Source: a virus (taxonomy: Duplodnaviria; Heunggongvirae; Uroviricota; Caudoviricetes). Taken from it: a stretch of DNA of 4,110 bases. The DNA lies in the IMG/VR virus record IMGVR_UViG_2568526230_000001, positions 1 through 4,110 of that record. One strand, 5' to 3'. The notes under the pieces are model-generated. The model was not told the origin of the DNA, did not search any database, and worked only from the letters and a program-made list of their open reading frames with translations. Shown here in pieces: positions 1-4,110 of this stretch (positions are counted from its first letter, which is position 1; every line of letters starts with the position of its first letter). A program made the position numbers and the translations under genes.

Positions 1-570
1 GTCTGAAACGCAGGCTGCAACGCCGAAAGCAGTAAAGGCCGCGTATGACCTTGCTAACGGTAAATATACTGCGCAGGATGCCAGCACGACGCGAAAAGGC
101 CTTGTCCAGCTCAGTAGCGCCACCAACAGCGCGTCTGAAACGCAGGCTGCAACGCCGAAAGCAGTAAAGGCCGCGTATGACCTTGCTAACGGAAAATATA
201 CTGCGCAGGATGCCAGCACGACGCGAAAAGGCCTTGTCCAGCTCAGTAGCGCCACCAACAGCGCGTCTGAAACGCAGGCTGCAACGCCGAAAGCAGTAAA
301 GGCCGCGTATGACCTTGCTAACGGTAAATATACTGCGCAGGATGCCAGCACGACGCGAAAAGGCCTTGTCCAGCTCAGTAGCGCCACCAACAGCACGTCT
401 GAAACGCAGGCTGCAACGCCGAAAGCAGTAAAGGCCGCGTATGACCTTGCTAACGCAAAATATACCGCTCAGGACGCCACGACGGCACAAAAAGGGATAG
501 TCCAGCTCAGTAGTGCCACCAACAGCACGTCTGAAACACTGGCCGCGACATCGAAAGCTGTTAAGGCGGT
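1..570 (+). repeat. Tandem direct repeats, 132-bp period, about 4.3 copies, in frame within the tail fiber gene (44-aa shaft repeat)
   Basis: The motif gtctgaaacgcaggctgcaacgccgaaagcagtaaaggccgcgtatgacc... recurs at 1, 133, 265, 397 and 529. Copies 1-3 are near-identical, copy 4 is diverged and copy 5 is partial. Frame 2 translation gives [44 protein letters not shown] per unit with no stops. This resembles the phage tail fibre repeat family (recalled from memory, not searched). Confidence 0.9.
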
Positions 571-1921
571 AATGGATGAAACGAACAAGAAAGCGCCCTT
601 AAATAGTCCTGCACTGACCGGAACGCCAACAACACCAACTGCGCGACAGGGAACGAATAATACCCAAATCGCAAGCACGGCTTTCGTTATGGCTGCGATT
701 GCCGCCCTTGTAGATTCGTCACCTGATGCACTGAACACGCTGAACGAGCTGGCTGCGGCGCTGGGCAACGACCCGAATTTTGCGACCACCATGACTAACG
801 CGCTTGCGGGTAAGCAACCGAAAGATGCCACCCTGACGGCGCTGGCCGGACTTACTACTGCGGCAGGCAAGTTTCCGTATTTTACGGGGAATGATGTCGC
901 CAGCCTGGCAACCCTGACAAAAGTCGGGCGGGATATTCTTGCGAAATCGACCGTTGCTGCCGTTATCGAATACCTCGGTTTACGAGAACTCGGCACAAGC
1001 GGGGAGAAAATACCGTTACTCAGTACAGCGAATACCTGGACTAATCGACAAACATTCAGCGGTGGCCTTTCTGGTGAACTATCCGGCAATGCTTCTACAG
1101 CTGCAAAATTAAAAACTGCCAGGAAAATAAGCAATGTGGCTTTTGATGGTTCCTCCGATATCACATTAAAAGCAAGTCATGTTGGTGCGTTTGCCTTAGG
1201 GAAAACAGGAAGCACCGTTGCGAATGATAAAGCAGTTGGATGGAACTGGAGTAGCGGAGCCTATAACGCAACTATTAGTGGTGCATCAACGTTAATTATT
1301 CATTTTTATATGGGAGAAGGAAGTTGTCCTGCAGCTCAGTTTCGGATTAATTATAAAAATGGCGGTATTTTTTATCGTTCAGCCCGTGATGGTTATGGTT
1401 TTGAAGCCGACTGGTCCGAATTTTACACCACCACCAGAAAACCTTCAGCAGGAGATGTTGGTGCACTGCCGTTATCTGGTGGTCAACTGAATGGTGCACT
1501 GGGTATCGGAACATCCAGTGCTCTTGGCGGTAATTCGATTGTATTGGGTGATAATGACACGGGCTTTAAACAAAATGGCGATGGTAATCTGGATGTTTAT
1601 GCTAATTACGTCCATGTTATGCGCTTTGTTCCCGGAAGCATTCAAAGTAATAAGACCATAAATATTACGGGGCGTGTTAATCCCTCGGATTACGGTAACT
1701 TTGATTCCCGTTATGTGAAAGATGTTCGACTTGGTTCACAGCAATATTATGGAGTGAACAACTGGCGAACATGGAATTTCCAGTGCCCTTCAGGTCATGT
1801 ATTGTCTGGTATTAATGTTCAGGATACAGGGTCTAACTCTGCCGATAATATAGCGGGTGTTTATTACAGACCCGTTCAAAAGTATATAAATGGCACCTGG
1901 TATAATGTAGCGAGCGTTTAA
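2..1921 (+). CDS. Side tail fiber protein, 5'-partial (constant shaft plus currently expressed variable C-terminal tip, cassette A)
   Basis: Frame 2 is open from the window edge to the TAA at 1919-1921. The ORF track starts at Met-572 only because that is the first ATG; the upstream frame is open and encodes the 44-aa repeats. The C-terminal half is AT-richer and ends in the conserved motif [17 protein letters not shown]. It resembles E. coli prophage Stf-family fibers (recognition from memory). Confidence 0.88.
589..1041. repeat. Left arm of long perfect inverted repeat (partner 3658-4110); coding, conserved fiber region
   Basis: The reverse complement of 3658-4110 matches 589-1041 base for base in every stretch compared by eye (590-690, 689-760, 761-1040). 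The first mismatch is at 1042 (ctaat vs ccaat). The outer boundary cannot be determined because the right copy runs off the window at 4110. Confidence 0.9.
963..988. other. Putative recombination (crossover) site for a Din-family serine invertase, left copy (gix/cix/pix/hix-like)
   Basis: TTATCGAATACC-TC-GGTTTACGAGAA is a 26-bp imperfect palindrome with 12-bp half-sites around a central TC. It matches Mu gixL (recalled as TTATCCAAAACCTCGGTTTACAGGAA in this orientation) at about 22 of 26 positions. It lies in the codons for VIEYLGLRE, so exchange is in frame. Confidence 0.7.
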
Positions 1922-1922
1922 T

Positions 1923-2450
1923 ATGATGCACTTAAAGAACATAAAAGCGGGTAATGCTAAAACACTGGAACAGTATGAGTTAACAAAGAAACACGGAGTT
2001 ATCTGGCTTTACTCTGAGGACGGAAAAAACTGGTATGAGGAAGTGAAAAACTTTCAGCCAGACACCATAAAGATTGTTTACGATGAAAATAATATTATTG
2101 TCGCCATCACCAGAGATGCCTCCACGCTTAATCCCGAAGGTTTTAGCGTCGTCGAGGTTCCCGATATAACGGCCAATCGTCGGACCGATGATTCCGGTAA
2201 GTGGATGTTTAAGGACGGAGCTGTGGTTAAACGGATTTATACGGCTGACGAACAGCAACAACAGGCCGAATCACAAAAGGCCGCATTGCTTTCCGAAGCT
2301 GAATCAGTCATCCAGCCGCTGGAACGCGCTGTCAGGCTGAATATGGCAACAGACGAGGAACGCACACGACTGGAAGCATGGGAACGCTACAGTGTTCTGG
2401 TCAACCGTGTGGATACGGCAAATCCTGAATGGCCACAAAAGCCTGAATAA
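1923..2450 (+). CDS. Tail fiber assembly protein (Tfa/U-like chaperone) cognate to cassette A
   Basis: A 175-aa ORF starting ATGATG one nucleotide after the fiber stop (TAA-t-ATG). The N-terminus [14 protein letters not shown]...[13 protein letters not shown] is typical of Tfa proteins of lambdoid/e14/Mu-type phages and is paralogous to the - strand ORF 2479-3012. Confidence 0.85.
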
Positions 2451-2455
2451 AAATT

Positions 2456-2475
2456 AAGGCCCGTTATCGGGCCTT
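2456..2475. terminator. Putative bidirectional intrinsic terminator hairpin between the convergent tfa genes
   Basis: A perfect 8-bp GC-rich stem (aaggcccg / cgggcctt) with loop ttat. On the - strand transcript it is followed by AAUUUUUAUU. On the + strand the downstream U tract is weak (gucucauu), so the call is stronger for the - direction. Confidence 0.55.
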
Positions 2476-2478
2476 GTC

Positions 2479-3012
2479 TCATTCAGGTTGTTCGGGAAAT
2501 GTTACTGGCAGGCTGGAGGTGTCTGTGGATTCGACTTTCTGCGCATAGAGCATCCACTCGGTTAATTTTTGTTTATTCTCGTCGGAAATGATGCCCAGCC
2601 GTAGCTGTGAGTCCCATAGCTGAGTTTTATCCCTGACAAGTTGCAACAGGCTCTGCTTTTCATTTTCCGCTTGTTGCCTCTGCTCTTCCTCGGTATAAGT
2701 TCGCTTTACCACTACGCCATCTTTGAACATCCATTTCCCCGAAATATCAGCCCGGCGATTTGCTGTAATATCAGGTAATTCAACGACGCTTGCGCCTTCC
2801 GGATTAATTGCTGAAACATCCTTTTCAATACAAATAATAACGCCGTTATGGTCATAGACCATTTTCAAAGTGTCTGGCTGGAAATTCTTTTGTTCCTCAT
2901 ACCAGTTTTTTCCATCAGCTGAATAAAGCCATTTGATGTTAAATTGCTTTGTTAGCTGGTATTGCTCTTTTGTTTTAGGGTTGCCAGCAGTAATGTTTTT
3001 TAAGTGCATCAT
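2479..3012 (-). CDS. Tail fiber assembly protein (Tfa/U'-like chaperone) cognate to cassette B
   Basis: A 177-aa ORF beginning MMHLKNITAGNPKTKEQYQLTKQ... The N-terminal roughly 110 aa are highly similar to the + strand Tfa and the C-terminal roughly 60 aa are divergent. A GGGGAG Shine-Dalgarno-like motif lies upstream of the ATGATG, which sits 2 nt after the stop of the upstream - strand fiber cassette. Confidence 0.85.
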   Translation of the reverse strand: MMHLKNITAGNPKTKEQYQLTKQFNIKWLYSADGKNWYEEQKNFQPDTLKMVYDHNGVIICIEKDVSAINPEGASVVELPDITANRRADISGKWMFKDGVVVKRTYTEEEQRQQAENEKQSLLQLVRDKTQLWDSQLRLGIISDENKQKLTEWMLYAQKVESTDTSSLPVTFPEQPE

Positions 3013-3014
3013 CG

Positions 3015-4110
3015 TTAAATACTCCCCGCGTTATACCACGTCCCATTAATGCAATACTGAATTGGCCTTGCCTGTGTTGTATCAATTAATTCATCACGGT
3101 TTCCGTTAACTGAACCCGTAACGACATAACCTGACCTGTCAGACCAGCCGGGACCATTCCATGTCTGAACAGATGACAGACCGCCAAGGCGAATACCTGT
3201 AATAAACCTTGAGTTACATTCTGTCCGCGTATATGCACCAACATCTCCCGCTGAAGGTTTTCGTGTCGTGGTATAGAAATCTGACCAACCTAATTCAAAC
3301 CCATAACCATCACGAGCCGACCTGTAGGAAATGCCACCATTTTTATAATTCACACGGAATTGTACGGCAGGACAGCTACCAGCATTTATATTAAAGTGAA
3401 GAATTAATGCAGATGCACCACCAATCATGGCGTTATATGCACCACTATCCCAATTCCATCCAACGGATGTATCACCATTAACAGTATTACCTGTTTGTCG
3501 GAGTGCAAATGCATTGACATTTTTGGCACTAATTGAAATATCGCTAGAACCATCAAAACCAACTCCAGCAATTTTTCGTGCTGTTTTCAGCTTTGTTGCA
3601 GTAGCGGCATTGCCGGACAGTTCCCCAGAAAGGCCACCGCTGAATGTTTGTCGATTGGTCCAGGTATTCGCTGTACTGAGTAACGGTATTTTCTCCCCGC
3701 TTGTGCCGAGTTCTCGTAAACCGAGGTATTCGATAACGGCAGCAACGGTCGATTTCGCAAGAATATCCCGCCCGACTTTTGTCAGGGTTGCCAGGCTGGC
3801 GACATCATTCCCCGTAAAATACGGAAACTTGCCTGCCGCAGTAGTAAGTCCGGCCAGCGCCGTCAGGGTGGCATCTTTCGGTTGCTTACCCGCAAGCGCG
3901 TTAGTCATGGTGGTCGCAAAATTCGGGTCGTTGCCCAGCGCCGCAGCCAGCTCGTTCAGCGTGTTCAGTGCATCAGGTGACGAATCTACAAGGGCGGCAA
4001 TCGCAGCCATAACGAAAGCCGTGCTTGCGATTTGGGTATTATTCGTTCCCTGTCGCGCAGTTGGTGTTGTTGGCGTTCCGGTCAGTGCAGGACTATTTAA
4101 GGGCGCTTTC
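3015..4110 (-). CDS. Alternative side tail fiber C-terminal cassette (cassette B, Sv'-like), 5'-partial, currently in the silent orientation
   Basis: The - strand frame is open from the window edge (4110) to the TAA at 3015-3017. The first roughly 150 codons in the window are identical to the + strand fiber (inverted repeat), followed by a diverged homologous region and then a unique tip. It ends in ...RPIQYCINGTWYNAGSI, conserved with cassette A. Met-4010 from the ORF track corresponds to internal Met-689 of the + strand gene, so it is probably not the true start. Confidence 0.8.
   Translation of the reverse strand, partial: KAPLNSPALTGTPTTPTARQGTNNTQIASTAFVMAAIAALVDSSPDALNTLNELAAALGNDPNFATTMTNALAGKQPKDATLTALAGLTTAAGKFPYFTGNDVASLATLTKVGRDILAKSTVAAVIEYLGLRELGTSGEKIPLLSTANTWTNRQTFSGGLSGELSGNAATATKLKTARKIAGVGFDGSSDISISAKNVNAFALRQTGNTVNGDTSVGWNWDSGAYNAMIGGASALILHFNINAGSCPAVQFRVNYKNGGISYRSARDGYGFELGWSDFYTTTRKPSAGDVGAYTRTECNSRFITGIRLGGLSSVQTWNGPGWSDRSGYVVTGSVNGNRDELIDTTQARPIQYCINGTWYNAGSI
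3658..4110. repeat. Right arm of long perfect inverted repeat (partner 589-1041)
   Basis: See the left arm. Coordinates pair as p and 4699-p. The arm extends to the window edge and may continue beyond it. Confidence 0.9.
3711..3736. other. Putative invertase recombination site, right copy (inverted relative to 963-988)
   Basis: TTCTCGTAAACC-GA-GGTATTCGATAA is the exact reverse complement of the 963-988 site. The central dinucleotide is identical to the left site in inverted orientation, as required for inversion rather than deletion. Confidence 0.7.

Follow-up and report, generated by a model that had tools for sequence, protein, structure and literature searches.

The window analysed here, 4110 nt in length (IMG/VR record IMGVR_UViG_2568526230_000001), is the complete draft contig KI929687.1 of assembly GCA_000522145.1, and it carries the end of a phage tail-fibre gene together with a second, oppositely oriented fibre end. 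The two alternative fibre ends, here called cassette A (plus strand) and cassette B (minus strand), converge on each other, each with its own tail fibre assembly (Tfa) chaperone gene. We hold with strong confidence that the region forms the interior of an invertible tail-fibre segment of Gin/Cin/Pin type, carried by a P2-like (Xuanwuvirus-type) Escherichia coli prophage, and, as part of the same explanation and with that one degree of confidence for both, that the two cassettes are chains of modules swapped among Mu-, P1- and P2-like phages. The genes and segment features, with context features last, are:

2..1921, plus strand: tail-fibre gene, constant part plus cassette A, open at the window's left end; the longest ATG-started open reading frame is 572-1921
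964..989: left 26-bp crossover site for a Gin/Cin/Pin-type invertase, TTATCGAATACC-TC-GGTTTACGAGAA
973..1041, partner 3658-3726: native perfect inverted repeat of 69 bp, from alignment of both arms in the native locus L002
1923..2450, plus strand: chaperone for cassette A (Mu U type), Caudo_TAP E=4e-38
2479..3012, minus strand: chaperone for cassette B (Mu U' type), Caudo_TAP E=4e-37
3015-4110, minus strand: second fibre end (cassette B side), running off the window's right end
3710..3735: right crossover site, with the sequence of the left one exactly inverted in this contig
3736..4110, minus strand: second, inverted copy of the constant fibre part, 375 nt, counterpart of 589-963
1..660, plus strand: tandem 132-nt (44-residue) Phage_fiber_2 repeats of the constant shaft, copies 94-99% identical, outside the mosaic
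2456..2475: GC-rich hairpin, AAGGCCCG-ATAA-CGGGCCTT, in the 28-nt gap between the convergent chaperone genes, terminator-like on the minus strand

The constant N-terminal part of the fibre gene lies outside the segment, and the alternative C-terminal parts, both promoterless, lie inside it, each with its own assembly gene. Two inverted 26-bp sites with the family consensus and a 2-bp core enclose these parts. The left site shares the central TC of Mu gix (TTATCCAAAACC-TC-GGTTTACAGGAA) and is identical to it at 21 of 26 positions, and P7 cixR (TTATCCAATACC-TT-GGTTTAAGAGAA) is also close to it. In native genomes the right site reads TTATTTAAAACC-TC-GGTTTACGAGAA: the outer half-site TTATTTAAAACC differs from that of the left site, and beyond it the DNA is unrelated and includes the invertase gene. 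The window's own right site exactly mirrors the left, which is the form expected after inversion. The invertase is a 199-residue serine recombinase (native locus L002, 8569-9165), encoded directly outside the right site and matching the Pfam families Resolvase (E=1e-50) and HTH_7 (E=4e-13).

Both orientations occur in nature. Cassette A is fused to the constant part in NZ_CP115324, where the homologous gene is a 2223-bp P2-type tail-fibre gene, and the flipped state is genuine in phage 503458, with B joined to the constant part and the invertase beside A. Some draft contigs likewise begin with the constant part joined to B; their start base corresponds to window position 4110. Segments of P2-like prophages have been found to invert in clonal E. 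coli cultures (PMC4272514). In the mechanism we propose, the serine invertase, natively encoded just outside the window, would recombine the site at 964-989 with its inverted partner; inversion would join the constant shaft either to cassette A and its chaperone or to cassette B and its chaperone, and through it the host-recognition end of the fibre would switch.

The carrier is evident from complete genomes. Among 5426 complete E. coli genomes, 103 carry at least 80% of the window (identity 99.6-99.7% among the matches listed), and in 102 of these the match spans 222-3740, with both cassettes and both chaperone genes collinear at 99.7% identity. The native order, as in NZ_CP115324, is fibre gene, tfa, tfa' (minus strand), partial fibre end Sv' (minus strand) and recombinase, all within a P2-like tail module; native annotations call these genes tail fiber, tail fiber assembly and recombinase. 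Related phages include the Xuanwuviruses P88, 503458 and 520873, as well as Mu, D108, SfMu, P1, P7 and D6, and the layout of the segment interior is the same in Mu, SfMu, P7 and phage 503458.

In Pfam searches, the tail-fibre gene (2..1921) gave five Phage_fiber_2 repeats (E=1e-89) and gp37_C. The shaft repeats at 1-660 extend at least 1.7 repeat units beyond those of the homologous gene in NZ_CP115324, which suggests copy-number variation or an assembly effect.

Modules of the two cassettes

Comparison of the cassettes with each other, with known phage fibres and with an alignment of 27 E. coli and Salmonella homologues resolves the following modules, where dS denotes synonymous substitutions per synonymous site:

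1040..1126, plus strand (partner in B 3573-3659, minus strand): connector of A, 29 codons, homologous to the start of P7 Sv and Sv'
1184..1465, plus strand: middle domain of A, 94 codons, Mu S' type (gp37_C-like), matching 8JU3 residues 321-417 (E=2e-49)
3234..3515, minus strand: middle domain of B, Mu S' type, 80% amino-acid identity to Mu S', dS 1.55
1438..1466, plus strand (partner in B 3233-3261, minus strand): region of the KPSAGDVGA junction motif, gaaaaccttcagcaggagatgttggtgca, where A/B collinearity ends
1466..1702, plus strand: A-only 79-residue glycine-rich shaft module (...NPSDYGNF), near-invariant in the 27 homologues and absent from B
1703..1918, plus strand: tip domain of A (Mu S/SfMu type), with a hypervariable core between RLG and RPVQ
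3018..3215, minus strand: tip domain of B (Mu S' type), last 65 residues identical to 8JU3, dS 0.07 against Mu and P7
1883..1918, plus strand (partner in B 3018-3053, minus strand): 12-residue C-terminal tail with INGTWYN; B's version is CINGTWYNAGSI

The initial annotation, made from the sequence of the window, had described a mosaic that runs from identical to diverged-homologous to unrelated DNA and closes on a shared C-terminal motif. Its diverged-homologous stretch is real: the 143 codons of 1040-1468 pair with 3659-3231 in an ungapped alignment (73% identity in nucleotides, 76% in amino acids), and the similarity of this collinear part is beyond chance (BLASTP E=0.0). The three protein blocks said to be shared are there, as is the common 29-nt DNA motif gaaaaccttcagc[a/g]ggagatgttggtgca, at 1438-1466 and 3233-3261. 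Counted from the equivalent Met, A has 449 residues and B 370, which confirms the excess of 79 in A, and the conserved INGTWYN tail ends both cassettes.

The shared 140 codons, which had been read as a scaffold or trimerisation region, are not only scaffold: they comprise the 29-codon connector and a folded Mu S'-type domain, as in 8JU3. The middle domain of A shares 84% amino-acid identity with Mu S' and 76% with B, with dS above 1.2 for both comparisons. Relatives of this domain with an SARDGYGFE motif are found in fibre genes of Xenorhabdus, Photorhabdus, Pectobacterium and Edwardsiella, at 20 loci (L010-L029) that were collected by a genome-contig search with an A-based alignment and are mostly middle-domain relatives.

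The claim that the cassettes then diverge completely does not stand. Past the collinear part lies the 79-residue block present only in A (1466-1702), and after it both cassettes continue into homologous tips: A residues 378-449 align with B residues 299-364 at 35% identity (BLASTP E=9e-9). At the C terminus the cassettes share an entire tip domain of ~70 residues, more than the 12-residue tail. The tail itself appears to be kept by selection at the protein level, as the last 17 codons retain 65% amino-acid identity between A and B while their synonymous sites are saturated (proportion of differing synonymous sites, pS, 0.97).

The non-alignable region had been taken for a swapped receptor-binding module, but the A-only block is the most conserved module in the 27-homologue alignment, and the hypervariable stretch, ~45 residues, lies inside the tip. 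From that conservation we infer that the block is a shaft or spacer module and not the specificity determinant. Neither is it a low-complexity linker, an outcome that would have counted against the initial annotation: its entropy is 3.77 bits, it has predicted beta strands, and it hardly varies among the homologues. A sequence search of solved structures gave for this module a weak match to the distal long-tail-fibre subunit of phage S16 (PDB 6F45, E=7e-4) and none covering the module; Foldseek matches to other 6F45 chains were also weak. In an AlphaFold2 (AF2) model the module forms strands with predicted local distance difference test (pLDDT) scores of 57-80. The model is that of the A-cassette monomer (1040-1918), built from a 28-sequence alignment, with mean pLDDT 57 and a predicted template modelling (pTM) score of 0.27, and it is usable for tip secondary structure only. 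Foldseek with this model ranked 8JU3 and 5YVQ at the top, with low TM-scores, so that the ranking alone is informative.

The two tips have solved homologues in Mu. A residues 367-448 match 5YVQ chain A residues 426-503 (E=1.2e-15); the A tip is 93% identical to that of SfMu gp52 and 51% identical to that of Mu S, and in the AF2 model it scores pLDDT 70-88, with its frame motifs as beta strands. B residues 198-364 match 8JU3 residues 322-488 (E=1.6e-95), with 88% identity over 165 residues. By these similarities, cassette B is Mu S' (8JU3), and cassette A is a recombinant of three parts: its middle domain is of S' type, its tip is of Mu S/SfMu type, and between them lies the conserved glycine-rich shaft module. 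Each cassette may then be viewed as a chain of autonomous trimer-forming modules: connector, S'-type middle domain, glycine-rich shaft (in A only) and ~70-residue tip.

Breakpoints, repeats and the right arm

The mosaic is modular, with discrete breakpoints marked by steps in dS and drops in identity, as had been proposed; it is not graded. Between the arms, synonymous divergence jumps from 0 (590-1039) to pS 0.55, or dS ~1, in the next 29 codons (1040-1126), and in those codons A and B still share 93% amino-acid identity (dN/dS, the ratio of nonsynonymous to synonymous divergence, 0.03). The apparent gradient in nucleotide identity is one of differing protein constraint; at the neutral level, the exit from the repeat is a step.

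Further steps appear against other phages. Window DNA is 90-100% identical to Mu and P7 over ~2010-3270 and ~70% identical beyond, and it is 88-100% identical to SfMu from 1710. At 3270 the identity of B to Mu, P7 and SfMu falls from at least 90% to ~70%. Against Mu S', the tip of B has dS 0.07 and its middle domain dS 1.3, a difference which argues for a recent transfer of the unit of tip, tfa, tfa' and partner tip between Mu-, P1- and P2-like phages. The middle domains, to judge from their synonymous divergence (dS above 1.2), appear to be old lineages that diverged anciently. The joint of B lies at KPSAGDVGA (3233-3261) and coincides with the motif that ends A/B collinearity. In the 27-homologue alignment, junction residues K134, P135, A137, V140, G141 and A142 remain unchanged even behind an unrelated domain, and the motif is a recurrent module joint. 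We suggest that recombination at conserved junction motifs (KPSAGDVGA, and the frame and tail beside the chaperone gene) would exchange modules among Mu-, P1- and P2-like phages, and that such exchange would yield the observed succession of identical, diverged, absent and weakly similar parts.

The same succession might instead come from concerted evolution, by a gene-conversion tract that decays from the crossover site, with the paralogues homogenised nearby and drifting apart further off. The native 69-bp perfect repeat does run 52 bp past the 26-bp core site, and only 3 mismatches fall in the following 51 nt, as such a tract would leave them. However, synonymous sites are already near saturation in 1040-1126, the middle domain of A is nearer to Mu S' than to cassette B in the same segment (dS above 1.2 throughout), and the contrast between tip and middle domain of B needs horizontal exchange. 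Gene conversion may explain the 69-bp repeat at most. A pure gene-conversion gradient was rejected on the abrupt dS step and the horizontal tip exchange, and we consider it improbable as an account of the mosaic; exchange of modules between phages at conserved joints is the explanation we prefer.

The outermost part of the window calls for separate treatment. In the contig, 589-1041 and 4110-3658 complement each other without a mismatch over 453 nt, and only at 1042 does the pairing fail. This 453-nt repeat is not native: complete genomes have 69 bp (973-1041), made up of the inner part of the crossover site and 52 bp of coding sequence. The stretch 3736-4110 most likely arose where the assembly ran through both inversion states, because similarity to complete genomes stops at 3740 in 102 of 103, where the invertase gene comes next, the window is a whole draft contig, P2-like segments flip in clonal cultures, and other draft contigs share the same start base. 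The cassette coordinates 1041-3658 are unaffected, as only the outer 375 nt are suspect.

Could the mirrored cassettes as a whole stem from a mis-joined draft contig, so that they never existed in one molecule? The inverted duplicate of the constant part at 3736-4110, in a window that is an entire draft contig, would fit, and the window's arrangement recurs in just one of the 103 complete genomes, inside a suspicious palindrome. But the interior (222-3740) is collinear in the other 102, and the same layout is found in Mu, SfMu, P7 and phage 503458, which leaves suspicion on the outer 375 nt only; we regard an artefact of that extent as very improbable.

The sole complete genome with the window's arrangement is NZ_CP170378.1 (locus L001, positions 1-16911), in which the palindrome exceeds 7 kb and mirrors the whole P2-like tail module around the segment at the record's start. 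One arm is rich in frameshifted genes, and the palindrome looks like a hybrid-assembly artefact due to the invertible segment. For annotators, the practical point is that draft contigs across invertible segments can display both junctions, mimicking a long perfect inverted repeat.

Tip variability and chaperone matching

The tip has a constant frame around a variable core. The frame motifs, FDSRYVxDVRLG ... SGHV ... RPxQKxINGTWYN, enclose ~45 hypervariable residues, and this RLG-RPxQ region takes at least four unrelated types among the 27 E. coli and Salmonella homologues. AF2 predicts the frame motifs as beta strands with higher confidence than any others (pLDDT 87-88); scores drop in the core that they enclose. 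A sample from IMG/VR, the best 80 loci (L034-L113), all with U-type chaperones at least 88% identical to the A chaperone and thus covering within-U variation only, has tip cores of the types SQQYY, TRVVQL and TRVVQT and rarer ones upstream of the chaperone, with the same frame throughout; the partner cassette nearly always has an S' tip. The loops of the hypervariable core most likely carry receptor specificity.

Both chaperones belong to Caudo_TAP (PF02413), with scores of 130.9 and 127.9 bits against a cut-off of 22.1, and their genes begin 2-3 nt past the fibre stop codons. They are 57% identical to each other overall; identity is ~72% for residues 1-108 and falls to 34% in the C-terminal part. 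The A chaperone is 87% identical to Mu U in its N-terminal part and 96% in its C-terminal part, and the C-terminal part of the B chaperone is 100% identical to that of Mu U'.

Across 12 fibre/chaperone pairs, the more alike two tip frames are (tail included), the more alike are the C-terminal parts of their Tfa proteins (Spearman rho 0.86), and the tip core shows rho of at most 0.36 with any Tfa part. A Salmonella fibre with an S'-like core and an S-like frame has a U-like chaperone, which fits the link between frame and Tfa. Among 57 distinct U-type pairs from the IMG/VR sample, tip-core type (SQQYY vs TRVVQ) associates only with Tfa residues 2-30, with mutual information of up to 1.0 of 1.55 bits, and the rest of the chaperone is near-invariant; this link could reflect co-adaptation or simple linkage. 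According to the passages on North et al. (2019) in PMC9608196 and PMC8174754, Mu Tfa does not leave the fibre tip; the domain that binds the fibre is the N-terminal one, and trimer assembly is driven by the C-terminal one. As far as those passages go, both co-variation results agree with this published Mu work, and the Mu structure 5YVQ shows Tfa at the tip of the fibre.

We infer that frame and tail are what the separate Tfa chaperone recognises. Tentatively, the matching of fibre to chaperone might be encoded by the tip frame (FDSRYVxDVRLG and RPxQKxINGTWYN) and read by the C-terminal part of Tfa (U vs U'), with the core unseen except perhaps by Tfa residues 2-30. If true, a single chaperone could serve in folding many receptor specificities, and the use of the frame motifs as recombination joints would be accounted for.

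The conserved C-terminal element had also been proposed to be a chaperone-recognition or an intramolecular-chaperone region. The first of these is plausible from the frame-Tfa correlation and the position of Tfa in 5YVQ. The second, a domain cleaved after trimerisation as in T5 pb1 or the endosialidase tailspikes, is scarcely credible: the element does sit at the extreme C terminus and is conserved across otherwise different tips, but Pfam gave only Phage_fiber_2, gp37_C and a sub-threshold gp37_trimer in both fibre proteins, with no family of an auto-cleaved C-terminal chaperone domain (~100-150 residues) in either, the tail lies within the last 17 residues of a ~70-residue tip domain and aligns to residue 503 of 504 of the deposited Mu S (5YVQ) and 488 of 488 of Mu S' (8JU3), and a dedicated Caudo_TAP gene follows each cassette. 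The intramolecular chaperone was rejected on the lack of a detectable domain, the separate chaperone genes and the alignment of the tail to the ends of the deposited Mu fibres.

At a Salmonella locus (L032, 4300-6080) the tail of the partner cassette differs (...YRPLQMWVGNGWRTING), and the accompanying Caudo_TAP chaperone is a distant one of 172 residues, 30% identical to the A chaperone. The RPxQ...G.W motif thus persists across much more distant tip families.

Several points weigh against parts of this interpretation of segment, tips and chaperones. (i) The window itself is without an invertase gene, and the two orientations come from other genomes and phages. (ii) The AF2 model treats a trimeric fibre as a monomer and is of low overall quality (pLDDT 57). 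(iii) The receptor-binding residues are placed by variability in aligned sequences; the middle domain also varies (76-84% identity) and could contribute to receptor binding, and the changes behind the differing host ranges of SfMu and Mu S' lie in middle domain and tip alike. (iv) The frame-Tfa co-variation stands on ~3 independent lineages (U, U' and the Salmonella type), and the link between core and Tfa residues 2-30 (window 1923-2012) is confounded by physical adjacency on the DNA.

Relation to known invertible fibre segments

The closest known system is the Mu G segment (S/U, S'/U', Gin, gix), which likewise has two convergent variable ends, each with its own Tfa, and inverted crossover sites. 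Mu DNA is 88% identical to window 1859-3513, and the window's chaperones are of the U and U' types. Mu is a transposable phage, whereas the carrier here is a P2-like prophage, and the constant shaft here consists of lambda-Stf-like 44-residue repeats, unlike that of Mu. In Mu itself, what S has in common with S' is confined to a short stretch after gix and to the C-terminal ~75 residues, the two tips being ~36% identical, as are those of SfMu; here both cassettes add an S'-type middle domain. Relative to Mu S, cassette A has its body replaced by the middle domain and the glycine-rich module, and its tip core is of SfMu type, not Mu type. The solved Mu tips, 5YVQ (S with TfaMu) and 8JU3 (S'), are direct homologues of the A tip and cassette B.

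The C segment of P1 and P7 (Cin, cix) is alike in the 21-residue connector start that follows the crossover site in both P7 Sv and Sv'. The P7 cassettes share 82% identity over their first 71 residues, an internal block, and 38% over their last 71 residues, ending in INGTWYN, and P7 DNA is 89% identical to window 1877-3513. The P7 cassettes are much longer (447-522 residues), with extra internal modules. P1 has inverted repeats of ~0.6 kb inside its segment, where the native perfect repeat here is 69 bp.

The Xuanwuviruses (P88, 503458, 520873) share the P2-like tail module and an invertase beside an invertible fibre segment. Phage 503458, in the flipped orientation described above, matches window 1862-4110 at 94.5%, and differs in the A-side cassette, which has a TRVVQT-type tip core.

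The norm in this family is a conserved start followed by a rearranged middle and then by a weakly conserved tip that closes with INGTWYN. Among invertible host-range switches of the Mu G / P1 C class, whose modular build was already known, the present system is ordinary. In biological terms it holds no surprises for the current view of mosaic tail-fibre genes and host-range switching by inversion. Its practical value is modest: the joints defined here, KPSAGDVGA and the RLG/RPxQ frame, could guide the re-engineering of tail fibres and tailocins of Mu-, P1- and P2-like origin with one chaperone kept.

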